64,000 nt of DNA, from contig OX597825.1 of the NCBI GenBank assembly GCA_951406725.2, positions 45,446,001 through 45,510,000 of the forward strand, written 5' to 3'. This DNA comes from Octopus vulgaris (lineage: Eukaryota). Both the position numbers and the translations under genes were made by a program. Below the pieces are notes generated by a model. That model saw nothing but the letters and a program-made list of their open reading frames with translations. It searched no databases and was not told the origin of the DNA. This document shows positions 5,159-57,977 of this stretch, piece by piece. Each line of letters starts with the position of its first letter. Position 1 is the stretch's first letter.

Positions 5159-5202
<44 letters not shown>

Positions 5203-5209
5203 ATCTATC

Positions 5210-8200
5210 CATCATCATCATCATCATCACCATCGTTTAACGTCCGTTTTCCGCGCTAGCACGGGCTGGACGGTTCGACCGGGGTCTGGGAAGCCAGAGG
5301 CTGCTCCAGGCTCCAGTCTGATCTGGCAGAGTTTCTACGGCTGGATGCCCTTCCTAACGCCAACCACTCCGCGAGTGTAGTGGGTGCTTTTTACGTGCCA
5401 CCTGCACAGGTGCTGGGGGGGGGGGGTCCGGCATTGGTCACGATCGGTTGGAGCTTTTAACGTGCCAGCGGCACGGAAGCCAGCATAGCTGGCAACGTTC
5501 GGATGGTCTTTTTATGTGCCACCGGCACAGGAGCCAGTCGGGGCGGTGCTGGCATCGGCCACATTCGGATGGTGCTTTTTATGTGCCACGGGCACAGGCA
5601 TCACAACTACTATTTCCATTGATATTTATTTCGACGTTCATGTTCATGTACTTGACTCAACAGGTCTCCTCAAGCACAGTGGGATGTTCTGGGATCCAGG
5701 ATACTTTGAATGGGCAGGGGCTATGCAGAACTGATGCAGGAAGCAGCCCGGGTCTTTGCAGTCACAGCATATCTCCAGAGATCTCGGTCCTTCGCCATTG
5801 CCTCAGTGAGGCCCAACACTCTGAGGTCATGCTTGACTACCTCATCCCATGTCTTCCTGGGTTTACCTCTCCCCCTGATACCTTCAACTGTTTGGGAGTG
5901 GCACTTCTTCACACATCTCTCCTCATCCATCCGCAGCACATGACCATACCATTGCAAGCGTCGCTCTTGCACACCACATCTGATGCTTCTTATATCCAGC
6001 ATTTCTCTCAGGGTGCTTACACTCTGTCGTGCATGCACACTGACATTACACATCCAGCGGATCATGCTAGCTTCATTTCTTTCAAGTCTACGCATGTCCT
6101 CTGCAGTCACAGCCCATGTTTCACTACCGTGAAGCATGGCAGTTCGCACACATGCATCATACAATCTACCTTTCGCTCTGAGGGAGAGACCCTTTGTCGC
6201 CAGTAGGGGTAGGAGCTTTCTGAACTTTGCCCAGGCTATTCGTATTCTAGTGGTGATACTCTCTGTGCATCCACCTCTACTACTAACTTGGTCATCCAGG
6301 TAGCGGAAACTATCAACTACTTCTAGTTTCTCTCCCTGGAGTGTGATGGAATCTGTTTTCTGAGTGTCTGTGGTGTCTATTGTCCCTGTGCATCTGCCGC
6401 ACATGAAAGCTATCTTATCTGTTGATTTCCCTTTAATGTTGCTGCACCTCTTGTGCATCCATAGCTTACATTGGGTGTATCTTATGGAGTTTCTACCTAC
6501 ACCTTTCCTACAGATCGAGCAGGGTCACCTGCCCGAGGGGGTGTGTGTGCTGAGTTTGCTTTTCTGCTTACTATAACTCTGGTCTTTGCTACATTTACTC
6601 TAAGGCTCTTTGATTCTAACCCTTGCTTCCACACCCGAAATTTCTTTTCTAGTTCCGGTGGTGATTCTGCTATGAGAGCCAGGTCATCAGCATAGAGGAG
6701 CTCCCAGGGGCATCCTGTTTTGAATTCCTCTGTTATTGCCTGGAGGACTATGAAGAATAAAAGGGGACTGAGGGCTGAGACTTGGTGCACACCTACTTCT
6801 ACCCGGAATTCTTCACTATATTCGTTGCCAATCCTAACCATGCTGACAGCCTCTCTGTATAGAGCCTGTACAGCCCTTATTAGCCATTCGTCAATCTCCA
6901 GTTTCTGCATCGACACCAGATAAGGGAACGGGGAACCCTGTCAAAGGCTTTCTCCAAGTCCACAAAAGCTATGTAGAGGGGTTTATCTTTAGCTAGGTAC
7001 TTCTCCTGCAGTTGTTGGACCAGGAATATAGCATCGGTGGTGCTTCTACCCGGCACAAAATCGAACTGCATTTCATCTAAGCAAATTCTCTCCCTAATGA
7101 GATGGGTTATGACCCTCTCTGTGACCTTCATCACATGATCCAACAGTTTGATACCCCTGTAGTTATTTCTATCTAGAGCATCACCCTTACCCTTGTAGCA
7201 GTTGACTATGGTGCTGCTACGCCAGTCATTGGGTATGACTCCATTATGAACTACCTGGTTTACAATGTGGGTGACTAGGCCATAGCCCACATAGCCAGCT
7301 GTTTTAAGCATCTCAGCAGTGATTCCTGATGGGTCGGGGGCTTTACCTGGTTTCATATCCTTAATTGCCTTAACTACAAGGGAGCTGTCTATTCGGGTAG
7401 CTGGTCCCTCTACTGGGTCAATATTTGGCAGGCTCTCCTCCTCCCATTCATTCTCCTCATTCAGCAGTCTTTCATAATGGCTTCTCCAAGCCTCTTTCTT
7501 TTCACTAACAGTAAAAGCAAGTGCCCCATCATCCATGCGGACACATTTCTCTCCTGTAACATCACTATTTTCTCTGACACACTGTCTGGCAATCCGAAAT
7601 ACCTCAGCTCTTTGGTCCTCACGTCGCTGGACATTGGCAAACTTCTTCTTTTCTGCTACATCTTTGGCTATGTATACCTGCCGCCCAGCCCCCCTTTTGG
7701 CTACCTGGTACAGTTCCCTGCTACCCCCATCCCTCCAGACTTTCCAGGCCTGTCTCTTTGCACTAATGGCTTTGTCTACTGCACTATTCCACCACCACGT
7801 AACTCTAGGTCTGGAAGGGACTTTGCACCATCCACAGACTTGGTCTGTGACACTCAGCAAGCTGTCCCATAGGAATTCCCAGCTACCTTCTATGTCTGAC
7901 GTCTGAAGCTCCTCCTCCCTCCCATCAAATTTCTTGATGAGTATGTCCCTAAATCTCTGACCATGTGAAGGGGTCTTTAGCTTCCAAATCCTTTTCTGGA
8001 TTGGTTTGTTTCTTGGAGTCCTTCTGGCCTCAAGCTTAAAGTCACTGATGATTAGTCTATGCTGAGGGATACATTCTTCACCTGGGAGGGTCTTTGTATT
8101 CAAGAGCGACCCTGCATCCCGCTGTCTGGTGAGGATGAAGTCTATTTGGCTAGCGGAGACTCCTGACTGATAGGTTATAAGGTGGCAGTCAGGCTTCTTG

Positions 8201-9611: not shown

Positions 9612-12020
9612 GTTGCAAGACAGTGTGTAGAGAGAATCGTGATGTGGTAGGAGAGAAATGTGTTCGTGTGGATGATGGTTCACTTGCGCTAAATGAGGAT
9701 GCAAAGAGAGAGGTTTGGAGACGCCACTATGAAAGGTTGCTGAATAAAGAAAATGAATGAGATAAAGAGAGTCTGCCGAATGTCGACCCAACAGAGGGAC
9801 CAGCTATCCGATTTGACAGTTCCTTAATAGTTAAAGCAATTAGAAGCATGAAGACAGGGAAAGCCCCAGGCCCATCAGGAATTACTGCAGAGATGCTCAA
9901 AATATCTGGTAGTATCAGCTATAGCCTAGTCACCCATATAATTAACCAGGTGATACATGAAGGAGTCATACCCATTGACTGGTGTAGCAGCATAATAGTC
10001 AACTGCTACAAAGGTAAAGGTGACACCCTAGATACAAATAATTACAGAGGTATCAAGCTGTTGGATCAGGTAATGAAGGTTACGGAGAGGGTCATAGCCC
10101 AACTGATTAGGGAGAAAGTCAACTTGGATGAGACGCAGTTTGGTTTCGTGCCAGGGAAAAGCACCACTGATGCCATATTTCTGATGAGATAGCTGCAGGA
10201 GAAATACCTAGCCAAAGATAAGCCTCTGTACCTGGCTTTCGTTGACATGGAGAAAGCCTTTGACAAGGTCCCGTGATCCCTTATCTGGTGGTCAATGAGG
10301 AAACTAGGGATAGATGAATGGTTAGTGAGAGCTGTGCAAGCCATGTACAGGGACACTGTAAGTAAGGTAAGGGTTGCCAACGAGTGCACTGAAGAATTCA
10401 AGGTAGAGGTTGGGGACCACCAGGGTTCAGTCCTCAGTCCCCTCCTATTTATCATAGTCCTCCAGGCAATAACGGAGGAATTCAAGACAGGATGCCCCTG
10501 GGAGCTCCTATATGCTGATGACCTTGCTCTAATTGCTGAGTCACTATCAGAACTAGAGGAGAAGTTTCAAGTGTGGAAACAAGGATTAGAATCGAAGGGC
10601 CTTAAAATCAACCTAGCTAAAACCAAAGTCCTAATAAGTATGAAGGCAGGCAAACCACAAATCCCTTCAGGTAGATGGCCCTGCTCGATCTGTAGTAGAG
10701 GCATAGGTAGAAACTCTATAAGATGTACCCAGTGTAAGCTATGGACACATAAAAGGTGCAGTAATATCAAAGGAAGGCTAACTGGGAAGATAGTTTTTGT
10801 ATGTGGCAGATGCTTGGGAGCAATAAACACTGAAAATGCGCAGAGACCAACTTCCACCACATTCCAAGGAGAAAAACTAGTAGTTGATAGCTTCCGTTAT
10901 CTAGGTGACCAAGTTAGTAGTGAAGGAGGGTGCGCTGAAAGTGTAGCTGCTAGAATAAGAATAGCCTGGGCAAAGTTCAGAGAGCTCTTACCTCTGCTGG
11001 CAACAAAGGGCCTCTCGCTCAGAGTAAAAGGTAGACTGTATGACGCATGTGTATGAACAGCCATGCTACAAGGCAGTGAAACATGGGCTGTGACTGCTGA
11101 GGACATGCGTAAGCGCACAAGGAATGAAGCCAGTATGATCAGATGGATGTGTGATGTGTGATGTCAGAGAAAAGTTGGACCTAAGAAGCATTAGATGTGG
11201 TGTGCAAGAGAGATGACTGCGCTGGTATGGTCATGTGGCAAGAATGGATGAGGATACCTGCGTGAAAAAGTGCCACACCCTAGCGGTTGAGGGAAGCTGT
11301 GTAAGAGGTAGACCCAGGAAGACCTGGGATGAAGTGGTGAAGCACGACCATCGAACATTAGGCCTCACCAAGGAAATGACTAGCGACCGAGACTTTTGGA
11401 AATATGCTTTGCTTAAGAAGACCCGGCAAGCCAAATGAGACCATGACCAGTGGCTTATGCCAGGAGCGTAACCAGCCCGCTTATGCATACCTTTTCCTTC
11501 TTTGGTCACTAAACTCTGACTGGCATCCATGCTAGCGGGGTGCAAAGAGCACCATACGAGTGTGATCGTTGACAGAGCGGCTATTCGAGTATGATCGTTA
11601 CCAGCGTTTGCCTTACTGGCACTTATGCCTGTGCTAGTAGGGTGCCAAAAGCACCATCCGAGCGTGATTGTTACCAGAGCAGCCAACTGGCTTCCGCACC
11701 CGTGGCACGTAAAAGGGCACCATTCGGGCATGATCGTTACCAACGTCGCTTTACTGGCACCTGTGCCGGTGGCATGTATAAAAAGATTCGAGCGAGGTCG
11801 TTGCCAGTGCCGCCTGACTGGACCCCATGCCGGTGGCACGTAAAAAGCACCCACTACACTCTCGGAGTGGTTGGTTTTAGGGAGGGCATCCAGCTGTAGA
11901 AACTCTGCCAGATCAAGATTGGAGCCTGTTGCAGCCATCTGGCTTGCCAGCCCTCAGTCAAAATCGTCCAACCCATGCTAGCATGGAAAGCGGACGTTAA
12001 ACGATGATGATGATGATGAT
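9612..12020 (+). mobile_element. RTE LINE, 5'-truncated, same family as 5210-8450
   Basis: ORF pieces 9848-10192, 10295-11056 (QGSVLSPLLF, YADD) and 11235-11438 with stops; 3' UTR ends GGACGTTAAAC(GAT)n. Confidence 0.93.
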
Positions 12021-12109
12021 ATACAGATATGTATACATACACAATCACACACATATACACTCACGTACACACATACATACATACATACATACATACATAC
12101 ATACATACA

Positions 12110-12195: not shown

Positions 12196-14219
12196 CTAGC
12201 AGGCGTACCCGGTGTTGCTTGGGTGCGTTAGTTCGAAAAGTCTATGAAAATAATAAAGTGATTAACACTCCCTCCCTTAAGCACCTTTCACGCTTTATGG
12301 CAAGACTAACACCTAAGTAACTCTGTAAGGGAACTGCACGTGTAATATTACAACAAGAATCAAGTGAAAAATAAAGCAACAAAAATTATAACAGCAATAA
12401 CGTAGGACTGAAATATGGCGCCTGTACGGGCTTATAAACAACATTTTTAGTTTTCCCCTGGGAGATGAAGGCATGTAAACTGTTCTTACAACTCACTCTA
12501 GAGTAGCCAGCGTACAGTTGACCGTGTGAAAAGTATGGTTCGGCTAAGTAAAGTCCAACGACAGACAGCGACTGCCCTTGGGACTTATTAATGGACATGA
12601 CATAACTGAGTCTAATTGGAAACTGCTCTCTGCGGAATGTGAATGATAAGTCAGCAGCCAAAGGCACAAGGGAAATTCGCAGTATGAAGATGTCTTGACC
12701 TTTATCACAGACGGTCATAATCATTGCTTCAATGACATTGGGAAATAATTTTATGATAACAAGGCGTGTACCGTTGCACAACCTCGATGGATTTAAATTC
12801 CTTATCAACATAACAGGGCTACCTACTTTAAGAGTAAGAATATGTGGAGGTACACCTGAAGGCTCCAAGGAATTCAAAAATTCAGTGGGATAATCAACTA
12901 CCTCGTCCTGATTGTGAATGGTGTCTAGTGACTGTCACGTCCCCAGGCAAACGCAGTAAGAGGCTGTTGTTGATTGCCCTGACCACAATGTTTTAGGAGC
13001 CAAAATGGCTCTTTGGCAAAGCTAATCTAAATCTCCATTGTGGACTTCTAGGCCTGTGAAGACCTGGTGTTGAAGACTCTGGATAGTATTGGCTATTGTG
13101 CAAACGTTACTTATGTCAACATCTTCATTTTCGTCTTCTGGAACTTCACCATTACCAAAAAGGAGAATGTCCCTTGCAAAATTTTCTGACAATGGGTCCT
13201 CATGGAGGCACGCTCTCATATTGGATTCTAACTTTAAAGTAACAAAATGACCCCATACAGGTGAAGACACGCTATTACTTCATCCGCCCTTGTGCCTTTT
13301 GGAATCACTGGCAAGTTTTGTCAAAAGTCCCCAGATAGCAAGACAGTAACACTCCCACCATTGGTTCGTGGCTTTCCTTTATGTCTCACAAAGTTCTATC
13401 TAATGCCTCAAGGGCACCCTTGTGAACCATTGTGCATTCATCCCAAATGATAGGGCGGCATTGTGCAAGCAATTGCCCGTTGTCCAACGTCTTTGAAATG
13501 TTGTAAACAGGCGTTGGTGAACTTGCAAGGTTAAGGGGAAGCTTAAACGTAGAGTGTGCAGTCCTACCACCAGGGAGCAGAGTAGCAGCTATGCCTGAAG
13601 TTGCCGCAGCTATTGCAATGCACTTTTGTCGCCTTACTTTTGCAAGGATGAGTCTAGTTATGAATGCTTTGCCTGTCCCACCTTTACGACCCTGGACTTG
13701 CTGAACGATAGTGTCGTAGGCGTCCTTCTGGTCAGGTAGCAGGAGTGTCTCATTGATCTGTACATATGCAGATAGTTCAGTAATGTCTTAAGATGTTTCC
13801 CGAACAATTTCAGAAGGGAGATCATTTGAGGTAGGCTTTGCAGTGGGGGGGGGGGAGCCCGTAAGTGGTCATTATGTCATCGCCTAAAGCTAAAGTCTTG
13901 TTTTCAATCTCAATCAGCGCTAGGTTAGGGTTAAGGTTAGGATTAGGGATAGGGTTAGGGTAACTCAATTTCATTTTTACCAAATAATTTACGAAGGAGG
14001 AAATGGGTTATTTCCCTTGGAAGCTTTAAAATAATTACGCCCGCCGTTCAATCGCACCCAAATGCTTACCCAAACATTTTTCGAAATTGATTTATACTTA
14101 AAACCTCCCCAGACACATACGCAATGTGTTTGTGAAGTTTTAAAAAAATCTGTCGAGCCATTTTGGTGCAAAATGAGGACATACCGATACACACACACGC
14201 ACATTTTCAGTTTTAATAC

Positions 14220-14265: not shown

Positions 14266-14742
14266 TATATATATCATCATCATCGAGAACGGACGTTAAA
14301 CGATGATGATGATATATATATCTGTATATATAGATATATATGTAAAATTAATATGTGACAATTATTCGGTAGTCATGATAAAACTCCGAGTTCCGGATGT
14401 TGGGGCGGAAACCCATGCCCCCATTTCTTCAGTTATCTGGCCATCGACAAAATGCTATGAAAATGACTGTTAAACAAAAGGAAATTATTGTGTGATTGAC
14501 CGTTATTAAGACAAAAGAGCTATTGGAATGACCACTAAGTAAGGGAAGGGAGTAAAAATGTTCATAGTATTCGTGTAAGCGTTCATGTCCATACCTACAC
14601 ATGTGTGCTCACACACCCATATACAGGCGCCTATAAGTATATACTCATTCACCCTCACTTGAAACACACACATGATCACCCACACATTCACCAAAAATAT
14701 ATACATACCCGCATACACGCTCGCACACACATACGCGTGCAC

Positions 14743-15070
14743 AAAAAAGGTTCATACACAGGTCTATATACGCCCATGCACAAGAAAAATCAGGGATAAA
14801 GGCAAAATACAGAAAACAGTGTAAAGAAGTATAAAAAAATAAGCAATAAGAGTAAAACATCTATATACGCACATTCCCGTATGCACGCACACACATGTCT
14901 ACATATGCGCATACCCGTATATATATATGAACACACACGAAAAAGGTTCATACATACGTCTATATATGCACATGCACAAGAAAAAACAGGGCTAAAGGCA
15001 ACATACAGAAAAAAGTGTAAAGAAGTATAATAAAATAAGCAATAAGAGTAAAACACGTCTATATACGCAC
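14743..15070 (+). repeat. Diverged tandem duplication, unit ~195 bp
   Basis: AAAAAGGTTCATAC...GTGTAAAGAAGTATAA...AGCAATAAGAGTAAAACA occurs at ~14743 and ~14940. Confidence 0.75.
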
Positions 15071-15228
15071 ATACTCACATGCACACTCTATATACGCACA
15101 TACCCCCACAAAAGATTCCATATATACGTCTATACATGCACATAAATGTAGGGTGGAAGATGCAGAGGCGGTTCTAAATGATACTATGATTGAAGTGGAG
15201 TTAGAAACTAACAGACATGAACATAACA

Positions 15229-15338
15229 TCTATATATATAAAAGGCAGTTTGTCTGTCTGTGTGTCTGTCAGGTTGTACCCTCACCCTGACCGCGGCTTT
15301 CAACCGATTCTGATGAAACTTGACACACACATAGCCCA
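15229..15338 (+). mobile_element. 5' end fragment of the same Helitron family as 41587
   Basis: TCTATATATA...GGCAGTTTGTCTG...CAACCGATTCTGATGAAACTTGACACACACATAGCCCA, as at 41587-41705. It is interrupted by the HHR element at 15339. Confidence 0.8.
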
Positions 15339-15888
15339 CCATCTCAATATGGCTAACCACAAAGGGTGGGTGTTACTGTAGCTTTTAGCCCCAGGAGATC
15401 ATCGTCTCCAGCTGGCTTTAGGCACACTATCTGTGCCCTTATGGTATTTGCAAAGGGAGGTCGTCCCTTTCTTGTAAGCCTAAGTGATACGCACGGACCG
15501 CAGTTTCGAGGTAGTTGCCTCTTGTCAACGGGCGGTAATCACCGGTTTACGATGAAAAGGAAGACCTTGTATGCAAATACTCAAGTGTTTTTCTTGTAAC
15601 TTCCGTCACTGATTTCGAAAAACTGTCTGCAAACAATAATAAATCTCTGAACGAGATGTAAACAGTAACCGCTCGACTATGTAAAGTATAATAGCCATCT
15701 CAATATGGCTAACCACAAAGGGTGGGTGTTACTGTAGCTTTTAGCCCCAGGAGATCATTGTCTCCAGAAAGGGATGACCTCCCTTTGCAAATACCATAAG
15801 GGCACAGATAGTGTGCCTAAAGCCAGCTGGAGACGATGATCTCCTGGGGCTAAAAGCTACAGTAACACCCACCCTTTGTGGTTAGCCA
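15339..15888 (-). mobile_element. Non-coding retrozyme/Penelope-like element A1 (356 bp monomer + direct repeat + inverted segment)
   Basis: 15339-15411 is repeated at 15695-15767; 15766-15888 is the reverse complement of 15350-15472; HHR at 15490-15534. Confidence 0.75.
15490..15534 (-). ncRNA. Minimal type I hammerhead ribozyme, U3-A8 variant
   Basis: Minus strand: CGCCCG-TTGACAA-GAGG-CAACTA-CCTC-GAAA-CTGCGG-TC-CGTGCG. GUC cleavage triplet; stem III region ACUGCGGU is self-complementary with G-U pairs. Confidence 0.75.
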
Positions 15889-17389
15889 ATGTGTAGCTTT
15901 ACAAATTTATTTTGTAATTTTGGTTTGCAATTATTTATAGTTAAATGTTTCCTTTCAAAGTTTTTACTTTCAAACAATTTATTCATGCACATTTTGGACC
16001 TAACAACCTGTATGAGAAAATCGTTTTGACTGAAAGAATTTTGAAAGGGTTTTATTTTTAGACTGGGGTCAAACGGTCTTCAACCATATTTTAAATCTTT
16101 AGCAACACCAATTACAAAGAACTTGGGAGTGGTACTGAAAGACGGAGAGAAGTATTTGACAGACAGAAAGAGAGAGTTACACATTTTAACTGGGTGGGAG
16201 CTGTCTTCAATAATTCAAGTAATGCTATATATTCAAAATTAACCATGCATGCTGGTTTTGTTGTTGTTACTGTTGTTATTGTCACTTACTTTTTTTTGTA
16301 TTTTGACACTACTTTCCTTCAAAAGTTAGTGGTCATAAACTCCCTAGGGAATTTTATGTCAGCTTCATCACTTTTATTTATTATTATTTTTTTCCTTTGT
16401 TTTGAGACGAGATCGAACTTAAGAATTTTATACCGATAAATTTTAGACGCTTTTTTCTGAAACTGGTAAGATTATGCAGGAGGTGCAAATTTTGATCTTC
16501 CACCCACTGAGAATTCTAGGGGGTGCAGGTGCACCCACTGTACCCCCTGTTCCCGGACCCTTGAAAACAGGCCTAACGGATGTGTTTAAATGAATTAGCC
16601 AATTGGAAATAGATCAAGAATTTACGTGACCGCTCCCTAAACCCTAATATATTTTAAATATTTAATATGCATAGGTTAAATAGCCAATAATTTAAATGAC
16701 TGCTTCCTAACCCCCAATATAATTTTAAATATCTTTATATATTTAATATGCATACTTTAACGCAAACCTTGGACTAAATTAAACTTGGACATGGAGTTAC
16801 TACTATGTTTTTTAAAATTAAATTTATTTGATTATGTGGATGTATTAATTTTAATATCCAATAACAAGAATGTAAACATTGTGAAATCTAATATGCATAG
16901 AACGGGAACTTATATTTTGTGGAACTAACCTTGCCTGGACTTGTAATTCGGACTGAATGTTTTGGATGCTAGAATTTAACTTGTTCGTGTTAAGTAGATG
17001 CGTTAAGTATTATTTAGATTATGTTTGTATAATATATTCATACGCAAATATCTTGTTTGTGTATGTGTATATATATATATGTGTATGTGTGAATATTTAT
17101 ACTTTGTACCTTGTTTCATGAATTTTTGTTATGTTGTTTAGTATTATCGTTAAAACAACAATACTGTTGGTATTGTTAAAAGTGGTAGTATATTACGTTA
17201 GAATGCATTTACTGGACTGAAGCATGATAATCCAATGTAATGTGATATATTGTTCAATGTTGTTATTTATGTATTTTGCACATGTGATTACTATGTACGA
17301 TTTGCCTATGTATGTATATTTGTATATTTTATATGTATATATGTGTTTATGTATATATATATATATATAAAACATTACGTTATATAGTT

Positions 17390-17994: not shown

Positions 17995-18985
17995 AAAGCA
18001 TTTTTTGGCTTTATTGAGAAAATTCTATAGTTTGTAAGATATTTGTTGTTGTTTTTCTGCAATTTCAATCAATCAGTGACGTCTATTGAGTTAAAAAGCA
18101 TTCTGTGCCGTATGAATCTGTCCCTCGTTTAAGAAACAGATTGGGTTTATTTACATTTGTAAAGAAAAAAAGATACCCTTCCCCCACCCCTAACCCAAAC
18201 TAACCCTAAAACAGATTGAAATGCAATAGATCGATACTAGGGTTATAATTATGGGTGACAATTTCATATGACACCACTAGAAAAAGCAGCCGTTTTTTCT
18301 TCACAAATGTAAATAAACCCAATCTGTTTCTTAAACGAGGGACATATTTAAGCAATCTTTCGTCTCTAGTAGACCTTTCCGTCGATTTCCGTAAAAATTT
18401 TTTTGTTTTTTACATATGGGCTTGCGGGAACTTTTGAAGTAATGAGAGCGAAAGAGACTAAGAGAAAGCGATTGTATGACGAGGGAAATTCTTTTGAAGT
18501 TACCGTGCATGGGAGCATTGATGTACATGTGTGTGTGTGTGTGTGTGTGTGTTTGATGGGGTGTGGGAGACAGACAGTATGTTGTGTAAGTGAAGTGCTT
18601 CTGTTAGTGTGTGTGAAGAGACAGAGTAATGTGTGAAAGAAAGAGTTATGTATATGTATGTATATTACTTCAAAAGTTCCCGCAAGCCCATATGTAAAAA
18701 AAAAATTTTTTAACGGAAATCGACGGAAAGGTCTACTAGAGACGAAAGATCGCCCATATTTATACGGCCCAGAATGTTTTCACCTCAACAGACGGTCATT
18801 GATTGGTTGAAATTGCCGAAATGCAAGAAATTAAAGACCAAATATCTTACAAACTATAGAATTTTCTCAATAAAGCCAAGAGAAAAAGATGTTTTATAAA
18901 CACATTCTACCAGTATACGAAGTTTAAAATTATTTAGTTACCTAGAAATTTATGTTAAAAACTGCCGTTCAAACCGAAAAGATCC
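17995..18985. mobile_element. Foldback/MITE-type non-autonomous DNA transposon, left end truncated
   Basis: ~17995-18160 is inverted relative to 18303-18350 plus 18755-18885. The right terminus ...GAAAAGATCC is shared with 20316 and 21239. Confidence 0.7.
18351..18754. mobile_element. MITE with ~90 bp TIRs and 8 bp TSD, nested in the previous element
   Basis: TIRs 18351-18442 and ~18664-18754 (GGCGATCTTTCGTCTCTAGTAGACC...); TSD CATATTTA at 18343-18350 and 18755-18762. Confidence 0.85.
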
Positions 18986-19370: not shown

Positions 19371-20315
19371 GTAAGTAATAACTGATTAAGATCGTAAAAT
19401 ATATTAAGTACGGATAAATTTCTGTAATAAGTCATTATTTACTGTCGCTTTGTTTGCACGCTATTTTTTCTTAAATAATTATGATAGCATATTTAGACGT
19501 GTTTACTTATAATGTACGTATACGTACCATGTGTACATACGAAAGTATACGTTGAAGAGTTGCGGTGTATGTTTGCCTCTAGATTGAAATGTATCTGTCA
19601 AATTTGATGGCAAAACATTTCACTGAAGACAATGTTTTACTTATTAATTATTTGGTGCGGAAAAAGGGTGGCGATGGAAGGTGCAGTATATCTTTTCGAC
19701 AGGCATTTTCGCTGCGAGATTGTATTTTTAATTTCCTGTTAAAGAGTGAACATGTATTTATCTTTGAAATGATCTTAACGTAATGCCTATTCTTTGACAA
19801 GCATAACTACAGATTTCTGGGTAAATTTTCATTTACCGATTTCTGCCACCTCCCCCGACTTTGGATGATCGTAACTTTCAGAAAATGGATATTTTTAAAT
19901 AAAATTTTCTACGAATATGTATTATATCATTTAAATTCCGAATATACAAAATTTTAGGATTTGTGGGGGAAGCGTTTTAGGAGGGAATAGGGTGGGGAAT
20001 TTCAGAAAATTTACCGGAGTCCACTTCGTCTTAACTTTCAAGTAAATAGATATTTTTAAATGAAATCCTCCACAAATATACCTCGGACTATCTAGATTCC
20101 GAGGATATAGGAATTTGGGGGTGGGGAATAACTGGAGGTTATTTCTGAGAACTGTTCCCCACTTAGGGGTGTTTCGGAACAAATTCATATTTGTTTCATT
20201 TTGTGCGTTTGTGCATCCATAGATTTCCACTGAAGCAACTAACAGGCAATGAAGCCCTCACCAGAAAACTCGTTACGCTAAAAATAACAGCTAAAGTTCT
20301 GGTACACAGAAAGAT

Positions 20316-20487
20316 GGATCTTTTCTGTTTGATGGACGGAATTTTCTAGTTAACTAAAAAATTTGAAACTTTGTATACTGGTAGAATGTGTCAAACCCCA
20401 ATGCTTATTTTTTTAAACTCTGGTACTTATTCTGTTGAACTTTTTTGCTGAACTGCTAAAATTCCGTCCATCAAACAGAAAAGATCC
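20316..20487. mobile_element. Short MITE-like unit with GGATCTTTTCTGTTTGATGGACGGAATTT termini carrying captured SINE sequence
   Basis: TIRs at 20316 and 20459-20487; 20316-20457 is the reverse complement of 21098-21239. Confidence 0.7.
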
Positions 20488-20885
20488 AAGATATATTATC
20501 AAAGAAAAGGCCATAGCACCATCTTTAGTATCTGTTGTTATTATTATTATTATGGAGTTGAATGTGTGTGTGTGGTGAAGTTATTAATATCAATACATTA
20601 ACCAACACCATTGAAGTGAAATAATAGTTTCTATACTTTTGGTTTGGCACTGCTGAATTGAGTCAAAGACTATATAATACAAGTCAGCAGAAAAAGAAAA
20701 AAAATGCGATATCCATAACAATAACGAAATAAGACCTCCAAACCTTGTGTTTAAAATCTCCCTAACAAAAAGAAGAGAGGTTGTTTGGCTATGGACTACA
20801 TCAAAAAGTTTGCTCAAATCAAGTAAACTTATGAACCAAAGGTAGCCTAGCCATGAACATCTCAATGGTTTTCTTTCTTTTTGTC

Positions 20886-21160
20886 AGACATGGCTGTGTG
20901 GTTAAGATGGTTTCAAGTTCAGTTTCACTGCATGGCAATTTGGACAAGTGCCTTCTACTCTACCAGGCTGACCAGTGCCCAGTGAAAGAATTTGGTAGCT
21001 AGAAACTGTGCAAGTCTGTTGTATGTGTGTGTGTGTCTTTGTACCCCACCCTCACTACTTGACAACTGGCATTGGTTTGTTTACATTCCTGTAACTAAGC
21101 AGTTCAGCAAAAAAGTTCAACAGAATAAGTACCAGAGTTTAAAAAAATAAGCATTGGGGT
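20886..21160 (+). mobile_element. tRNA-derived SINE, decayed
   Basis: A-box-like TGGCTGTGTGGTTAAG and B-box-like GTTCAGTTTC, central (TG)n, 3' AGAATAAGTACCAG. Confidence 0.6.
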
Positions 21161-21324
21161 TTGACACATTCTACCAGTATACGAAGTTTCAAATTTTTTA
21201 GTTAACTAGAAAATTCCGTCCATCAAACAGAAAAGATCCTATATCTTTCTTGCTTATTTAAATTCAGTTCAATGCACACTTGCCTTGAACCAACCATTTC
21301 TCTTTGTGTTTATGTTCTTGATAA

Positions 21325-34962: not shown

Positions 34963-35350
34963 CTAGCAGTATCGCCCAGCGTTGCTCAGGTTTGTAAGGG
35001 AAATAACTATAAAGCATTTTTAGAGAGTTATAGCCAAAAAATAGCAAAAAGATGGAAAAAAATGATGGTAAATATTTTTTTTAGTTAAAAAAGGTGGAGT
35101 TGCGTCCCCTAGACAGTTTGCGGTTTGTGTTTCTGATTCTCGACCCCATGTCGAATTTATCGATTTTTTTCAGAACTGGGGGAACTTTTCGAAATTTTCG
35201 CTGCGTTAGTTTTGAATTATGACATTGGGCTATGTGTGTGTCAAGTTTCATCAGAATCGGTTGAAAGCCGTGGTCAGGGTGAGGGTACAAGAAAACAGAC
35301 ACACAGAAACACGCACAGACAAACTGCCGTTTATATAGAGAGAGAAGAGA
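34963..35350 (-). mobile_element. Non-autonomous Helitron
   Basis: 5' TC...TATATAAACGGCAGTTTG, with ~250 bp matching 41587-41835. 3' hairpin and CTAG at 34963-34966, shared with the 49568/50069 copies. Confidence 0.88.
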
Positions 35351-36376
35351 TATTTATGAACCAATGGGGGAGACCTCTATATGGTAGCTAGACCTAATAG
35401 AAATAGCAACCAAATCTCCCTCGAATTATACCAACTGTCTGATGTACGTATAAGCCAGTGTGGGAAACTACTACATAGTAGCTATAGCTGTTAGAAATAG
35501 CAGCTAAATCTCCCTCAAACCAAACCCTACTATTTTATGTATCTATGTATGTATGAGTCAGTGTAGGAGACTTCTCCATGGTAGCTATACCTCAAAAATT
35601 CCTTGTCTTGCAAGTTACTTGGTGACCCTGCTGGTGCTGGTGCTTATGTATGTATAGATTTATAAGTTGATCTGAGATGCATAAGGGAATGAATCTAACT
35701 GTTGTAGAAAGTTAGGATTGTAAAAGATTCAGTTCTGTATGAATAGCATTGAAGTTGCTGAGGATGTAAGATAGATGTCCTCAGTGTTTGAAGAAATGGT
35801 TGTTGGAAGAGACACAAAGGCAGCGGTTGCATTTAGACGAGTTGGGAAGATTTTGAGTAAGAGTAATCAAAAGTCATTGTGATGAGAAAGGAGAGTAGAA
35901 TCTATTTGCAGACTTTCCCTTTCAGAGTTAAGTTTGAGTATACTGTGGCTTGGATTGATGTTAAACTAGGTGGTGGATTGTGTCTACCATTAAAAAGGGA
36001 AGTTTAGAGGGGAGCTGTGGTGTTTTATCATCAATGCTTTTTATCCTCTTGAAATGACTATCAAATTCGATTCAACTGAATGGTTTGATCAAATACTTCC
36101 ATTCGATATCCTTCTCCACTATGGAGATGTTTTGATGAATGTTATAATGGACATAGCAAGCAGGCAGGTTGAATCAGTGTTTGTTGACATCTGGAAATGT
36201 TTCTATTATGGCTGTTCATAGCAAATTAGGAGGTAGACTAGTCCATTGTTTGTTGTGATAAAATATTTAATAGTGGATAGTGACTGGTCAGCTCAAATAT
36301 TTCTGTTTTCATTTTTCTCTGAAATACATTATATATCAGTTTATTTTCCCTTTCTTTAAAATGTATACATATTACA

Positions 36377-36934
36377 GAAATATTAATATTACTAAGTCTC
36401 TCTAAAAGAGATTGCGGCAGCGTCGCTAGAAATCAATTGTTATCGCCATATTAATATGGCATTCTTATTATAAGAATAAAAGCTGTCCGCTGATTAGCTC
36501 CATGAGGCCAAACGCCTTAAGATAGCTATGATACACAAACTGTATCCATTTTTAACCTTCGAACAAGGGAGGTCAGCCGCTTCACACTGCCAGTCCGACA
36601 GCTACAGACGCGTTTCAGGGTATTTGCCCTTTGTCAATGTAGCGCAGTCAGACCTCAGCAGGTGGCGACACTGACATCTCTGTTCGAAGGTTTTTATTTA
36701 TCTAGTTTCAGTGGAATACATCCACTTGTTCTTAATAACAGAAATATTAATATTACTAAGTCTCTCTAAAAGAGATTGCGGCAGCGTTGCTAGAAATCAA
36801 TTGTTCGAAGGTTAAAAATGGATACAGTTTGTGTATCATAGCTATCTTAAGGCGTTTGGCCTCATGGAGCTAATCAGCGGACAGCTTTTATTCTTATAAT
36901 AAGAATGCCTTATTAATATGGCGATAACAATTGA
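36377..36934 (-). mobile_element. Non-coding retrozyme/Penelope-like element A2 (364 bp monomer + direct repeat + inverted segment, 13 bp TSD)
   Basis: 36374-36441 is repeated at 36738-36805; 36801-36935 is the reverse complement of 36432-36566. TATACATATTACA flanks both sides (36364-36376, 36935-36947). Confidence 0.8.
36601..36643 (-). ncRNA. Minimal type I hammerhead ribozyme, U3-A8 variant
   Basis: Minus strand: GCTACA-TTGACAA-AGGG-CAAATA-CCCT-GAAA-CGCG-TC-TGTAGC. Perfect stems I and II, palindromic ACGCGU stem III, GUC triplet. Confidence 0.8.
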
Positions 36935-37554
36935 TATACATATTACATTATATTGAAATGCAAACTCAGTTGTAGCTGGTTCTTTATGCCAACCATTTTC
37001 CTTAAAAAGATTTGCATGGTGTGTATATTATCCATCCATCCATCCATCCACCCATACATATATGCATAAAATTGATTCTACTTTATATATAAAATGATTC
37101 TACCATTCATGTGTTGAATACATATACCAGCTTGGTGCCTGGTATGAATAAGACCACCAAAAACTGCAATATGAAAGATGCTCAAAAGAACAACCTCACT
37201 GCATCAACTATTGTACAGGTTAACAAGGAATATTTTCTGTTCTTAGGTAGAGGGTCCCATTCAAAAAATATATTGCAGTGCTGATACAACCAACAATAAG
37301 CTTGCAACTTGTTCTTGGAGGCACAGGGTAGGAGCACAGAGGATGCATGTCCCAGGACCTTGAAGCAGGTCCAAGAGGGATCAACCATTAATGATTTCAT
37401 ATTGAAATGTTATAATTCTTAGAGGCAAAGAGTAGAAACTGTTGCCAGAGAGATATAGTCAGTGTTACCTCTACAGTGTTCTGTGGGTCTGGTACCATAG
37501 ATTTGGATGGATGATGAATGAAACTCTACTGTTTGGGTGTGATGCCAATCACAA

Positions 37555-41394: not shown

Positions 41395-41548
41395 GAGTGG
41401 TTGGCGTTAGGAAGGGCATCCAGCTGTAGAAACACTGCCACATCTGACTGGCCTGGTGCAGCCTTCGGGCTTCCCAGACCCCAGTTGAACCGTCCAACCC
41501 ATGCTAGCATGGAAAGCGGACGTTAAACGATGATGATGATGATGATGA
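41395..41548 (+). mobile_element. RTE 3' end fragment
   Basis: GAGTGGTTGGCGTTAGGAAGGGC...GGACGTTAAAC(GAT)n. Confidence 0.8.
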
Positions 41549-41586
41549 TATATTTCTATATTTATATATATATTTATATTTATATA

Positions 41587-44500
41587 TCTCTCTATATATA
41601 AACGGCAGTTTGTCTGTGTGTGTTTCTTGTGTCTGTTTGCTTGTACCCTCACTCTGACCACGGCTTTCAACCGATTCTGATGAAACTTGACACACACATA
41701 GCCCAATGTCATAATTCAAAACTAACGCAGCGAAAATTTTGAAAAGTTCCCCCAGTTCTGAAAAAAATTGATACATTCGACATGGGGTCGACAATCAGAA
41801 ACACAAACCACAGACTGTCTAGGGGACGCAACTCGAGAATCTAAGCTTTTTATATGCAACGCATTATCTATGGTAGTTTTCGCAACTTGCAATCGATTTT
41901 CACAAAACTCATGGGGAAGCTTAATGTTACCCTAAGAAACTCAATTCTGACGTTAGTTTTCCATGCAATACCTTACCATCAGAAACAATCGATAAAATCA
42001 TGCCATTTTGGGAAATCGCGTTCAAATTCAAGATGACATATTTTCGACAATATCTTTCACAAATTGGCAGGAATTTTTTTTTTTATTCACAACGAGCATC
42101 ATGTCTGCTCCAAGGAGCTATATAGCCCTTTTTATTCCAATAGGATACATTATTGGAAAAAATCGGTTAATTAAATCATATGTGGCACACATAGCAAACC
42201 AATTTGTGTATTAAACACAAACCAGACTGTCTAGGGGACGCAACTCGACCTTTTTAGCTATCGATAATTCGATCCAACCAATTCCTACCAGGAAGAAATT
42301 ACATTCGAGACTTTACCCCCAACACTTCTGCTAATAGCTGCTGCAGCCGCAAGTTATTCGAATACTTTTTTTGTTTACACTTTCTTTATAACTACCACCC
42401 CAAACGTTTTACCTTAAATTTTTGACGTACCCTAACAGTCCTCGGACGCTACTTGCAAACTCTTGGTTTATTATAAACCGCTTTTGTCATGTGCATCAAA
42501 AAACCTTTTCCTTTCGTTTGTTCAGTTTGGTCACTTTTGACTTTTTCGTTGTTGTCACTCACATTGCTGCCTGCTTTTTTGCCGTTTTTGTACATTTTTT
42601 TACATTTTGGGATACTTACCCCACGAGCTCCTTTTTATTACACCTTTACCAAACACATTGCTATCCACCAAAATACTTACCCCACGTGTTCCTTTTTATT
42701 ATACCTTTGCCAAACACATTGCTATCCACCAAAATGCCACCCAAGAAGAGAAGGACCCTCCTCAGCCCTCGGACGGCCAAGGCATCGGCTGCTAGGGCTA
42801 GAAGGGCACGCGAGACCCACGAGGAAACTGCCTTGCGCCTCTCGCAAACAGCTTCCCGTTCTGCCGCTGCTCAGGCATCTGAAACTACTAGCGACCGTTC
42901 TACCCGACTTGCAAGGGTCGCAGCGTACAGATCTTCCCTCCGGTCGAGGTTGACGAAAGAGCAACAGTCCAGCCAAAACATGCGGGCTTCTTCCTGTGCT
43001 TCCATCCGCAGAGCTCGCGAGAACCCCGAACAAAGGGCCATTCGGAATGCGGCTAACGCCACTAGCACCGCCAGGACACGATCTGTCGAAACCTCACAGC
43101 AGAGGAGAACTCGCCAAGATGCTGACGCCGCAAACAAAGCCATGGCCCAATCTGCCGAAACACCTCAACAGAGGAGAGCTCGCCAAGCTGCTAACGCCGC
43201 AAACACAGCCATGGCTCGATCTGCCGAAACTCCACACCAACGAACTATTCGGACATCCAGAAATGCCATTAACACTGCTTCTGCTAGGGCTTCAGAGGGT
43301 GCTGAGGCGAGAGCTGAAAGGCTTTCAAGGGATGCCACTGCTACCGCTGTCGCACGTGCATCTGAATCTGCTGAGGCTCGACTTGAGAGTATCAACAAAC
43401 GTCGGGATATCATTCGTTGTGTACGTACCCCTGCCCCCGCTTTCTGGTTGTCACTAGCATTCAACTACGACGCCACAATTAACTTCTCCTTGCGTGACGA
43501 CATCAAGATAGGGTCAATGACAATTGTATGCCAGTTTTGCTAAGCCAAGAAATGGCACGGAGAGCCACCTGGTTTGTGCTGCTCTGGTGGCAAAGTGGAC
43601 CTGCCACCCCTACGGGAACCACCTCAACCACTGAAGGATCTCGCGGCGGGTTTAACCCCCGAATCATCATAATTCCTTGAAATAATTCGAAGGTACAACT
43701 GCTCATTCCAAATGACCTCTTTCGGGGCCAAAATTCCTCTTAGAGAAGGCTGGATGCCTACTTTCAAAGTGCAGGGACAGGTCTACCATCTTATTGGGTC
43801 ACTTCTGCCAGACGAGATTCAGCAGTCTTCTTTCCTCCAAATATACTTCATTGCCGACTACAACCAGCAGGTTGATGCACGCCTTGGAATAATACCGGGT
43901 ACAAGCTATGTTCCCCGCAAAGACATTCTTCTCCGTCTCCAAACCATGCTTCATGATATCAACAGCTACGTCTGCAGCTTCAGATATGCCTTGGACAGTG
44001 CTCCATCTCCAAACTTCACCGTTGTCATTGATGCTGATAAACGACCCCACAGGGAGCACGAACGCTGTTTCAACGCACCTGCGTGCAACGAAATTGCTGC
44101 AGTCATACACGGAGGAGAGCAACACAACAGCCGTGACATAATCATCTCCTCCCGTGGTAACAGCCTACACAGGATCAGCGAGACTCACAGATCTTATGAC
44201 GTGCTTCAGTATCCATTGCTTTTCCCTTATGGGGAAGACGGCTACCACTTCGGAATTCCTTTACAGCAGCCCTCCAATCAAACTACTGCGGCATCAAAGA
44301 CGGTTTCCTGCAGGGCGTTCTACTCATATCGGTTCATGGTCAGGGAGGGTGAGTTCAGCTTATTGCCCCGTTGTCGTCAGCTATTCAACCAGTTCGCCGT
44401 CGACATGGCCGCCAAAATGGAATCAGAAAGGCTGCTATACATTAAACTTAATCAGACCAAACTTCGCTCCGACTCCTACATTCACCTCCGTGACGGCTTG

Positions 44501-47500
44501 CAACAAGAAAATGACCCTCGCAACATCGGCAAGCCATGCATTCTACCCTCCACCTTCACGGGAGGACCGCGATATATGCGTGAAAGGACCCAAGACGCCT
44601 TGACCTACGTGCGCATTTACGGCCGGCTGGACCTCTTTATCACCTACACGTGCAATCCCAGCTGCGACGAAATCACTCGCGAACTCCTCCCGGGTCAATC
44701 TCACACCCATCGACACGACATCGTTGCTAGGGTTTTCGGTCTGAATTTGGGCAAAATGAAGGATTTGATAGTTAAGGGTCAGATTTTCGGGCATGTCAGG
44801 TGCCACATGTTTTCGGTTGAGTGGCAAAAGAGGGGCTTGCCACATGCTCACATCTTAATTTGGCTAACTCATAAAATCGAGACTAATGATATTGACAAAT
44901 TCATTTCCGCCGAAATTCCTGACCCCGATGAGGACCCCGAACCCTACGAAATTGCCCGCACTACCATGGTACACGGGCCCTGTGGACCAAATTACGCCAA
45001 CACACCATGCTGCAACAACGGATTAGCCTGCTCAAAGGGATTCCCTAAACGGTTCACTTTGGAGACTCAAACAGGCGGCGATGGGTATCCTCTGTACAAA
45101 CGAAGGAGTCCAGCCAATGGAGGCCGCACGATTACGGTTGGGCGACATCAAGTGGACAACAGCTACATTGTCCCCTACTGTCCTCTCCTGTCGAAGATAT
45201 TCAAAGCCCACGTCAACGTTGAGTTCTTCAGCTCCATCAGGTCAATACAATATGTCTGCAAATATATCAACAAAGGCAGCGATGCTGCCATGTTCAGCAT
45301 CCAGAGGACCACCAGTTGCGACGAAGTGTCCAACTACTTGGCTGGCCGGTACCTCAGCAGCAACGAAGCGTTTTGGCGCATTTACGGCTTCCCGCTCCAT
45401 CAGAGACACCCGGCTGTGGTGCAGCTTGCTGTACACTTGGAAAATGGACAGCGGATTTACTTCACAGAGCAAAGTGCTGTGCAGATAGCCACCAGCCCTA
45501 AAGACACAACGTTGACTGGTTTCTTCAAATTATGCCAACGTGATGACTTCGCTCGAACGCTTTTGTACCCACAGGTCCCATCGTACTTCGTGTGGTCTAA
45601 AAACACCTGGGTTTGACGGAAATCCGGCAAAAACGTTGAAGGCTTCCCAGGTGTCAAGTTTGACTCCTGCCTGGGTCGAGTTTACAACATCCCGCCAAAC
45701 CAGCAAGAATGCTTCTACCTCCGTCTCCTTCTACATGAGGTCACTGGTCCAACAGGTTTCGGCAATATACGTACCGTCAATGGGGTTCTGTGCGACACCT
45801 TCAGGGAAGCATGTATGAGACTTGGCCTTCTAGAGGATGACTCCCAGTGGGACGCCACGATGGCAGAGGGCGCTTTACTGCAAACGCCTTCGGCCCTACG
45901 ACATCTTTTCGCAATCCTTCTTCAAAAATATCAGCTTAGTGACCCACTAAGTCTCTGGATGAAATACAGGGATGACATGTCGCACGACTTCTTACGTACG
46001 GCTCAGCAACACTGCCCTTCCGCCGAGATCACGTTCACCAACTTCATTTACAATTTTGCGCTCATTCAACTCGAAGACGCTGTCATCGATATGGGTGGGT
46101 CTGCTTTAACAGAGTACGGCCTTCCACCACCCACACGTGAACACGCCAATTTTATGTCTGCTGAATTGTTACGCGAAAATTCCTACTGCATTGAGGAACT
46201 GCACTAGTACGTCCAAGATAATGAACCACGGCTGCTTCCAGACCAGTGCATAGCCTACAACACCATCGTAGACTCTGTCAGACAGCAACGTGGGGGGATC
46301 TTCTTCCTTGATGCACCCGGCGGCACTGGCAAAACCTTCGTCACTAAACTAATTCTGGCGGAGGTCAGACGCAACACGGACATTGCCCTGGCTGTAGCTT
46401 CCTCTGGTATCGCGGCCACGTTGCTTCCGGGTGGCAGAACCACCCACTCTGCCTTCAGACTCCCGCTTGATCTGGCAAAGTCCGAGTCACCTATCTGCAA
46501 CATCGCCAAGAACTCAGAACAGGCCGACATTCTGTGCAGATGCAAACTCATCGTATGGGATGAGTGCACTATGGCACACAAAGGCGCCCTTGAGGCACTG
46601 GACAGGTCCCTGCAAGACATCAGAGACTCTACGGCCCCCATGGGAGGATTAACTTTACTTCTTTCAGGAGACTTCAGGCAGACTCTACCTGTTATTCCAA
46701 AAGGAACCCGTGCCGATGCCGTGCGCGCGTGCCTTAAGTCGTCAGCTCTTTAGGTACATGTGCGGCCCTTGCACCTCCAAACTAACATGCGCGCGCAGTT
46801 GATTGGTGACAGCGGATCCGCTGCATTCTCCAGGGACCTCTTATCGCTCGGTGAAAATAGGATGCTGGCTGATGCGGATGGCTGCGTTCAATTGGACTCA
46901 CTTTGCACCATTGTCGACACCCCTGCTAGCCTCCGGGACGCTGTCTTCCACGACCTACAAAACAATTTACGCGACCTAAAATGGCTGGCAGGCAGAGCTA
47001 TTCTCGCACCCAAAAATACAACCGTCAACTCCATCAATATCCAGCTACTTGAAGCTATTCCTGGTGATGTCCACGTCTACAAATCTATAGATAGGACAGC
47101 AGACCCCGCCCAGCTTGCTGATTATCCTGTTGAATTCCTGAATTCACTTGAGCCGCCAGGCCTGCCGCCACACATCCTGAAGTTAAAAGTCGGTGCGCCC
47201 ATTATGCTCATCAGGAATTTGGTTCCACCTAAACAGTGCAACGGCACACGTTTGGTTGTGAAACATTTGGCACCACATTTAATAACGGCCACAATACTTA
47301 CCGGTTGTGGGAAGGGAGAGGACGTCTTCATTCCACGGATGCACCTTCAACCGTCGGGCGCTGACCTACCAATCCACTTCAGGCGTTCTCAGTTTCCTGT
47401 TAAACTCTGCTTCGCAATGTCCATCAATAAATCCCAAGGCCAAACGCTACAAGTCGCTGGGTTACATTTGGGCGATCAGTGCTTCGCCCACGGTCAACTC

Positions 47501-47720
47501 TACGTGGGTGTTCACGCGTTGGGAGGCGCAATGATGTTTTCATGTTTTCGCCCAAACGGACAGCTAGGAACATCGTATATACAGAAGTATTCGAGTGAAG
47601 ACAAGACATTGCAACGTCCACATGCACCTTCGTTCCTTGGAGGGAAAGGACTACATTGGGATTAGTCGTTGCCTACTAGGGGCTCTTACATACCCGGGCA
47701 ACGCCGGGCTATGCTGCTAG
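41587..47720 (+). mobile_element. Near-complete autonomous-type Helitron (~6.1 kb)
   Basis: 5' A|TC...TATATATAAA; 3' hairpin CCCGGGCAACGCCGGG then CTAG|T at 47717-47720; contains a Rep/Helicase ORF. Confidence 0.95.
42734..47598 (+). pseudogene. Helitron Rep/PIF1 helicase, intronless, ~1620 codons, 4 in-frame stops and 1 late frameshift
   Basis: MPPKKRR start and ~23-aa ET.QQRR.R repeats. Rep motifs DLFITYTCNP, VEWQKRGLPHAH (HUH) and YVCKYINKG; helicase motifs DAPGGTGKT, IVWDE, GDFRQ, SINKSQGQT, HGQLYV. Stops at 43541, 45614, 46205, 46751; 1-nt loss near 47510. Confidence 0.93.
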
Positions 47721-48038: not shown

Positions 48039-48068
<30 letters not shown>

Positions 48069-48069
<1 letters not shown>

Positions 48070-48285
48070 CATCATCATCATCATTTAGCGTCCGCTTTCC
48101 ATGCTAGCATGGGTTGGACGGTTCAACTGGGGTCTGTGAAGCCAGAAGGCTGCATCAGGCCCAGTCTGATCTGGCAGTGTTTCTACGGCTGGATGCCCTT
48201 CCTAACGCCAACCACTCCATGAGTGTAGTGGGTGCTTTTTACGTGCTACCCGCACAGGAGCCAGACGGAGCTGGCAAACGGCCAT
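48069..48285 (-). mobile_element. RTE 3' end fragment
   Basis: (CAT)n TTAGCGTCCGCTTTCCATGCTAGCATGGG... as in 5210-5400. Confidence 0.8.

Positions 48286-51893: not shown

Positions 51894-54076
<2,183 letters not shown>

Positions 54077-54349: not shown

Positions 54350-57977
<3,628 letters not shown>

Follow-up and report, generated by a model that had tools for sequence, protein, structure and literature searches.

Organization of the element and of its diverged relative

The analysed stretch of octopus DNA, 64 kb in length (hereafter the window), is rich in repeats and contains reading frames of LINE-type reverse transcriptases (RT), Helitrons and long TA tracts. For one RT in the neighbourhood of the elements, the best match in a named eukaryote is from Octopus vulgaris (78% identity), other named animals outside Octopus reaching 59% at most; this single mobile-element protein points to an octopus as the probable host. 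A non-coding element, denoted A1, lies in this stretch directly after a fragment of a Helitron 5' end and consists of one complete unit, a second, partial unit and an inverted copy (Table 1). The main arm of A1, on the minus strand that carries the predicted ribozyme, is 429 nt long, or 1.2 units, and has its 3' end at 15339. The inverted copy joins the direct repeat head-to-head through a 2-nt overlap (15766-15767), and its own 3' end faces outward at 15888; the main arm carries an 11-nt extension that is missing from the inverted arm. The longest stop-free stretch across the element is 80 amino acids, and the maximum for A1 and A2 is 80-82 amino acids.

The repeats within A1 are nearly perfect: the direct repeat is identical in 72 of 73 positions and the inverted repeat is complementary in 122 of 123, in line with the earlier note, which had counted about one difference in each. 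Both differences are CpG transitions, as are three of the four repeat differences when A1 and A2 are pooled, which is the pattern expected from decay inside a genome. The adjacent Helitron fragment is about 7% diverged, as against about 1% between the repeats of A1. Given two differences in 196 positions of the repeats compared with about 8 in 110 in the Helitron fragment, A1 appears to be one young insertion into an older target, and the sequence comparison thus supports the single recent event that had been proposed.

A diverged relative, A2, has the same organization (Table 1), so that a partial tandem with an adjacent inverted, 5'-truncated copy is present in both of the two elements. A2 is flanked by an exact 13-bp target-site duplication; this 13-mer has no third occurrence in the window, and only 1 of 5000 random site pairs, from a sampled range that included the true A2 site, reached 13. 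The flanks of A2 match nothing else in the window, and A2 is therefore not located inside any of the Helitrons of the window.

Table 1. Positions of A1, A2 and the associated Helitron sequences in the window
Feature	Position	Strand	Description
A1, whole element	15339-15888		550 bases, non-coding; unit, partial unit and inverted copy
A1 monomer	15339..15694	-	356 nt, 44% GC; outward (3') end at 15339; repeat period 356
A1 'tail'	15339..15349	-	11 nt, at one end only; gap between the two outward ends
A1 second partial unit	15695..15767	-	5'-truncated, pseudo-LTR-like; direct repeat of 15339-15411, 73 nt
A1 inverted copy	15766..15888	+	5'-truncated, 123 nt; reverse complement of 15350-15472
A1 extended stem I duplex	15442..15583	-	imperfect, ribozyme at the tip
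A1 type I hammerhead	15484..15542	-	predicted; descriptor and covariation with A2
A1 hammerhead stem I	15490-15495 / 15529-15534		6 positions, one C-U
A1 stem I internal loop			3x1, U1.7 unpaired
A1 hammerhead core	15528-15522	-	U3-A8 replacing C3-G8
A1 hammerhead stem II	15521-15508	-	4 bp, 6-nt loop
A1 hammerhead stem III		-	2 bp and 4-nt loop
A1 predicted cut	between 15496 and 15495	-	after GUC
A1 stem III/loop III octamer	15497..15504	-	self-complementary; predicted dimer interface
A1 hairpin across unit junction	15692..15711	-	7 bp; arms hold both outward ends (equivalents of 15339, 15350)
A2	36374..36935	-	diverged relative of A1, 21 kb away; period 364, 41% GC
A2 direct repeat	36374-36441 / 36738-36805		68 nt
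A2 inverted copy	36801-36935		135 nt; 5-nt junction overlap
A2 tail			58 nt
A2 hammerhead	36595..36651	-	U3-A8; 17/17 modelled pairs standard; palindromic stem III
A2 predicted cut	between 36607 and 36606	-	
A2 homologous hairpin	36446-36461		
A2 target-site duplication, left	36364..36376	+	exact, 13 bp
A2 target-site duplication, right	36935-36947		exact, 13 bp
Helitron 5' end fragment	15229..15338	+	A/TC start; older insertion target
ATGT	15889..15892	+	4 nt, probably left over from the continuing Helitron; the DNA beyond is not Helitron
Full-length Helitron	41587..47720	+	TC...hairpin-CTAG; empty-site reference; Rep/helicase frame interrupted

A predicted type I hammerhead with U3-A8 in its core

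A hammerhead descriptor that permits any Watson-Crick pair between positions 3 and 8 has two matches in the window, one in A1 (15528-15496) and one in A2 (36637-36607), both on the minus strand and both with the U3-A8 pair, compared with a single match in total over 60 block-shuffled windows. The paired 3-8 core, the GAAA motif and a triplet of the NUH type (GUC) are present in both elements. The canonical metazoan type I hammerhead is described as having 6 bp in helix I, 4 bp in helix II, and 1-2 bp with a small palindromic loop in helix III (PMC4209133); A1 (5/6, 4/4 and 2 bp) and A2 (6/6, 4/4 and a palindrome) agree with these helix sizes. Common to the two elements are the helix lengths of 6/4/2, the 3x1 internal loop of stem I, a 6-nt loop II that ends in A, and the GUC triplet. 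The residues that could bring loops I and II together, the unpaired U1.7 and the last A of loop II, are retained in both A1 and A2, and by analogy with the tertiary contact between U1.7 and a loop II A described in PMC11875169, such a contact may form here as well. The base of stem II in A2 is an A10.1-U11.1 pair, and the A2 fold is the cleaner one of the two.

Comparison of A1 with A2 further supports the fold. Both sides of the pair have changed in 8 of the 17 modelled ribozyme pairs, with 33 of 34 cells paired; only 2 of 500 shuffles were equally high, and slid registers yielded no more than 0-1 such pairs. This count is descriptive because only two sequences are compared and the structure was drawn from those same two. 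As a negative control, none of 52 prokaryotic matches to the core motif shows the full fold and one shows the full stem II; the core pattern has zero matches in phage records. Taken together with the descriptor matches, the covariation bears out the hammerhead with a U3-A8 pair proposed in the earlier note and supports the prediction that the minus strand of A1 and A2 encodes a canonical type I ribozyme. That note would have counted a single-copy sequence against its reading; the covariation supports the fold at any copy number, so a single copy would be no valid refutation.

Rfam searches yielded no hammerhead family, either at the gathering threshold or at E-values up to 10, and gave only chance-level matches to families other than hammerheads; the change to U3-A8 in the core may account for the missing match. 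This pair is a natural 3-8 covariation that is stated to be active in vitro, and about 1,300 U3-A8 hammerhead matches are reported for Schistosoma mansoni, along with pairs of hammerheads that lie on opposite strands at a distance of 100-700 bp (PMC3088659, PMC4209133). As far as these accounts describe them, the Schistosoma U3-A8 hammerheads are minimal and belong to Penelope-like elements (PLEs), whereas the U3-A8 pair of A1 and A2 belongs to a canonical fold that includes stem III and retains the residues for contact between loops I and II. A covariance model built from A1 and A2 and run over the window with filters off gave 83 and 78 bits for the two training sequences and 11 bits for the next best match, indicating that the window holds no third member of the family.

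The stem I duplex, the monomer fold and the dimer

The ribozyme of A1 is located at the tip of a long imperfect duplex, which the earlier note had described as an extension of stem I spanning 15458-15495 and 15529-15567. This duplex is real (15458-15488 with 15538-15567) and it continues beyond the proposed limits (15442-15452 with 15572-15583); a qualification applies next to the core, where the six proximal pairs include a C-U mismatch and have a pairing probability of at most 0.11 in the folded monomer. The z-score of the duplex is -3.84 in A1, with none of 200 shuffles as stable, and -5.36 for the equivalent duplex of A2. The plus strand of A1 scores much the same (z = -4.04), so these values attest to the duplex and do not fix the strand. 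In the predicted fold of the A1 monomer, stem III has a probability of 0.0, and the 5' strand of the proximal stem I is captured by the stem III loop. The active hammerhead fold is disfavoured in both monomers, lying 6.3 kcal/mol (A1) and 7.2 kcal/mol (A2) above the minimum, with stem III included and with energies that leave out tertiary contacts. The A1 monomer is thus predicted to misfold and, given the out-competed core register and the C-U mismatch in stem I, the A1 copy may be weak or decayed.

The stem III region of A1, which had been said to pair fully with a second copy by means of G-U wobbles, does so: the octamer ACUGCGGU self-pairs completely, with two G-U pairs, at -9.7 kcal/mol. 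The argument drawn from it is weaker than it appears, since 36 of the 256 possible 4-nt loops would give full self-pairing equally, and the A1 palindrome alone is therefore weak evidence for a dimer. For two A2 strands, the double hammerhead is the predicted minimum (-40.1 kcal/mol, two monomers giving -35.0). For two A1 strands, it comes within 2.5 kcal/mol of the minimum (-34.5 compared with -37.0), closer than the active fold of the lone A1 strand. The dimeric hammerhead of the earlier note is accordingly probable and, on these folding models, dimeric action is plausible; it is also textbook behaviour for this class of hammerheads as outlined in PMC4209133 and PMC7229834.

Homology of the two elements and hairpins at the unit junction

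Outside the ribozyme, A1 and A2 resemble each other on one side only. The region downstream of the cut gives an alignment score of 68.5, compared with a shuffle mean of 32.0 and with none of 300 shuffles as high, whereas similarity is lacking in the part that lies upstream of the core, where 278 of 300 shuffles reach the observed score. Judging from this alignment, the two elements share ancestry beyond the hammerhead core, in the part downstream of the cut. The outward ends are at non-homologous positions, +146 and +157 nt past the cut in A1 and +175 and +233 nt in A2.

A hairpin spans the junction between successive units in A1, and a homologous one is found in A2; three pairs cross the unit junction in A1 and seven in A2. 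Other truncation points do as well in 26 of 340 cases for A1 and in 1 of 348 for A2. The presence of junction-crossing hairpins in both elements, which make up the entire family sample for these comparisons, favours a contiguous tandem or a circular unit over a chance template jump. A separate small hairpin downstream of the ribozyme (15420-15440 and 36526-36548, minus strand) is kept in both elements with different stem sequences, and is a candidate binding site for the mobilising enzyme.

The Helitron target and the junctions of A1

The left junction of A1 is clear-cut. As the earlier note had recognised, the element directly follows Helitron sequence: CATAGCCCA at 15330-15338 is identical to the 9-mer at 41697-41705 inside the full-length Helitron. 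The fragment in front of A1 (15229-15338) differs from the 5' ends of both Helitron copies of the window by 8 mismatches in 110 nt and one gap of 7-8 nt. The Helitron used for this comparison is not intact as had been assumed: both of its ends are present, but its STPR, Rep and PIF1 domains are broken by in-frame stops. The other copy, at 34963-35345 on the minus strand, is a short non-autonomous relative that shares this 5' end and terminates in CTAG. A separate remnant of a Helitron-type PIF1 helicase (12386-13787, minus strand) is located just upstream of the A1 region, and a direct repeat with a period of 196 nt, about 89% identical, occupies 14740-15084, just upstream of the Helitron fragment.

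The right junction is less simple. The AATGT that follows the element (15888-15892) had been read as the continuation of the Helitron; its first A is the last base of A1, so that only ATGT matches independently (p about 0.005), and the flank is non-Helitron thereafter. Past these 4 nt, the right flank (15889-16600) does not resemble any Helitron of the window and shares only scraps of 14-21 nt with the rest of the window. No exact target-site duplication was found at A1, the only near-repeat being one that overlaps the element's own end. Either the insertion hit a 5' fragment that was short from the outset, or it removed the remainder of the Helitron; a simple two-nick insertion fails to account for the missing exact duplication and for a flank that leaves the Helitron after 4 nt. 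Beside the left junction, a 6-mer is common to the target and the element. Microhomology-guided priming at this end is only suggestive, since three extra bases break the simple model.

With only four independent bases on the right, a flank that is then non-Helitron, no exact duplication at A1, and A2 outside any Helitron of the window, the link to the Helitron is incidental. On the available sequence the Helitron is an older target and the mere landing place of A1; targeting of Helitrons was rejected given the position of A2. The earlier reading was thus sound with regard to the hammerhead, the young insertion and the dimer, and missed the class of the element.

Affiliation of the elements and a possible mobility cycle

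In their organization, A1 and A2 resemble metazoan non-LTR retrozymes. Both units are non-coding, fall within the range of about 170-400 nt, have a GC content below 50% and contain a type I hammerhead, as expected of a retrozyme unit, and mussel retrozymes of 350-390 bp provide a precedent for the unit size in molluscs (PMC7229834). As characterized in PMC7229834 and in the preprint 10.64898/2026.07.22.740005, these retrozymes further share with A1 and A2 a canonical type I hammerhead with a weak palindromic stem III and copies of more than one unit. Their target duplications, when present, are longer than 4 bp; A2 has one of 13 bp, and A1 only the near-repeat described above. A1 and A2 differ from the retrozymes so described in the U3-A8 core and in their extent: each locus comprises 1.2 units and a single hammerhead, whereas the active form is a tandem array of at least two hammerhead-bearing units, of which the window contains no example. 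They correspond to the solo derivatives of the preprint. They also have an inverted arm and a tail; in the part of the preprint that was covered (Li et al., 10.64898/2026.07.22.740005), the word 'inverted' is confined to the title of a reference and 'tail' is absent.

These two features point to PLEs. The insertion footprint of PLEs is reported to comprise a partial tandem (pseudo-LTR), an adjacent inverted 5'-truncated copy and a tail of 30-40 nt at one end (PMC8557442), with microhomology at the junctions and target duplications that either measure 8-10 bp or are absent (PMC3846280). A purified PLE protein cuts and extends both strands, with two internal starts downstream of its own hammerhead on uncleaved RNA (PMC11167929). 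A1 and A2 share with endonuclease PLEs the pseudo-LTR, the inverted truncated copy, an extension at one end only, the variable or absent duplication, the microhomology, and ends located past a type I hammerhead; they differ from the PLEs covered by these accounts in lacking an RT or GIY-YIG frame, in a hammerhead that is canonical and not minimal, and in tails of 11 and 58 nt. Nor was a PLE protein found in the window, either by a crude six-frame motif search or by a Pfam scan of 21 of the 80 listed frames of at least 120 amino acids, which were picked by eye with microsatellite and antisense frames skipped. A1 is neither an autonomous PLE nor Helitron cargo. It is probably a non-LTR retrozyme, and as such a non-autonomous PLE, which has a 356-nt unit with a U3-A8 type I hammerhead and was inserted in the manner of a PLE.

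The anatomy of the two copies suggests how such elements might move, and we infer a cycle that would include hammerhead cleavage, dimerisation, RNA circles and a PLE enzyme. A tandem master array elsewhere in the genome would be transcribed; the palindromic stem III would bring two hammerheads together, and their cleavage would release a unit-length RNA, which would be ligated into a circle. Acting in trans, the reverse transcriptase/GIY-YIG endonuclease of a PLE would nick both strands of the target, and cDNA synthesis would start at two internal sites, 146-233 nt past the cut, within a stem-loop or close to one. The main cDNA, of about 430 nt, would cross the intact cleavage site and exceed one full unit, which calls for a circular template or an uncleaved multimer. 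The second cDNA would halt 24-41 nt before the cut site, within the long stem I duplex, and the two cDNAs would be joined via microhomology of 2-5 nt. A1 and A2 would accordingly record how a PLE enzyme in trans, priming from both strands of the target, copied a retrozyme RNA that was circular or multimeric. With a single hammerhead and a long inverted repeat at each locus, release of a monomer from the locus itself is probably impossible, and both copies look like dead ends; in a read-through transcript, the inverted arm would be predicted to fold into a duplex of more than 120 bp.

U3-A8 cores, dimeric hammerheads and the layout of Penelope insertions are each already published, separately. 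The literature and the part of the supplements that were covered describe neither retrozymes from octopus nor a canonical retrozyme hammerhead with U3-A8, and they do not report the inverted-arm footprint of PLEs for retrozymes; the word 'ribozyme' does not occur in the text and supplement of the paper on O. vulgaris repeats (PMC13282606), which lists 30 recently active Penelope families in this species. The mobilising enzyme of animal retrozymes has so far been argued from co-occurrence and pLTR phylogeny, and a 2020 review goes no further than calling PLEs likely candidates (PMC7229834). Small insertions with a PLE-specific footprint make this partnership directly testable, and a main arm that exceeds one unit and keeps its cleavage site intact bears on the circular-template model. 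It is conceivable, with the balance slightly against it, that the genome harbours an abundant and unrecognised lineage of retrozymes with a fixed U3-A8 pair in a canonical hammerhead, overlooked by Rfam as well as by C3-G8 descriptors, whose insertions directly record two-strand Penelope priming on circular RNA; if so, this lineage would constitute footprint evidence for a partnership that is still hypothetical. The presence of two diverged members within 64 kb would point to a very large number in the genome, but the window was not chosen at random. A family missed by Rfam also implies that ribozyme counts in cephalopods, such as the 235 Rfam hammerhead matches reported for giant squid (PMC6962438), are too low. 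Counting against the overall reading, only one of nine predicted retrozyme dimers of Xenopus cleaved in vitro (preprint 10.64898/2026.07.22.740005).

Alternative explanations

A1 and A2 could be 3' fragments of autonomous PLEs, in which a template jump joined two serial 5'-truncated cDNAs, with an inverted copy in addition, the period being accidental and no small circular RNA being involved. Most PLE copies are indeed reported to be 5'-truncated and to form partial tandems (PMC8557442), and U3-A8 is known from the PLE hammerheads of Schistosoma (PMC4209133). The hairpins spanning the unit junction in both elements are hard to reconcile with this origin, as are the nearly equal periods of two diverged elements (356 and 364) and reading frames that do not exceed 82 amino acids; moreover, the hammerhead is canonical here, in contrast to the minimal hammerheads ascribed to metazoan PLEs (PMC4209133, PMC7229834). 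An origin as PLE fragments is therefore unlikely.

Alternatively, the elements could belong to the same class, with the inverted arm derived from a self-priming fold-back on an antisense template or from later DNA repair instead of two-strand priming. Self-priming has been proposed for head-to-head inversions of PLEs (PMC3846280); short palindromes are present at the A2 junction, and at A1 both an exact duplication and the continuation of the Helitron are missing. On the other side, the 13-bp duplication of A2 abuts both outward ends, the inverted arm starts away from the fold-back point, 295 nt inside the main arm in A1 and 239 nt inside it in A2, and purified PLE protein is capable of cutting and extending both strands (PMC11167929). 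Such an origin of the inverted arm appears quite improbable, and two-strand priming is the preferred reading.

That the unit is Helitron cargo acquired by rolling-circle capture, or is targeted to Helitrons, would be in keeping with a left junction that adjoins a Helitron 5' fragment and with the four bases of continuation past the right end. This idea is hardly tenable given that A2 is built alike and has no Helitron in its flanks, that the unit is absent from both other Helitron copies and that, even with the 5' TC end present, the right flank is dissimilar to the Helitrons of the window; a 13-bp duplication is not known as a Helitron trait either. A chance motif or a fold-back artefact of assembly, which could be invoked given the missing Rfam match and the capacity of sequencing artefacts to yield inverted duplications, has next to no likelihood in view of the covariation, the shuffled-window and prokaryotic controls, the CpG transitions among the repeat differences and the exact duplication at A2.

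Other repeats of the window

Several further repeats surround these elements. A young repeat family (20308-20488, 21098-21250 and 18900-18951) has inverted partial copies (153 bp at 97% and a 53-bp fold-back) with one shared end; no hammerhead was found in it, and it could represent a PLE end or the end of a DNA transposon. The nested inverted repeats at 18005-18879 (18005-18120 with 18755-18879, 18115-18170 with 18293-18348, and 18352-18443 with 18664-18753) are probably nested non-autonomous DNA transposons. Many copies of a SINE-like repeat with a terminal ATG-repeat tail lie beside TA tracts, at 41395-41549, 48068-48276, 51579-51892, 11801-12039 and 5171-5413; the repeat presumably resembles one of octopus genomes. 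A TA microsatellite of about 6 kb occupies 51961-57982.
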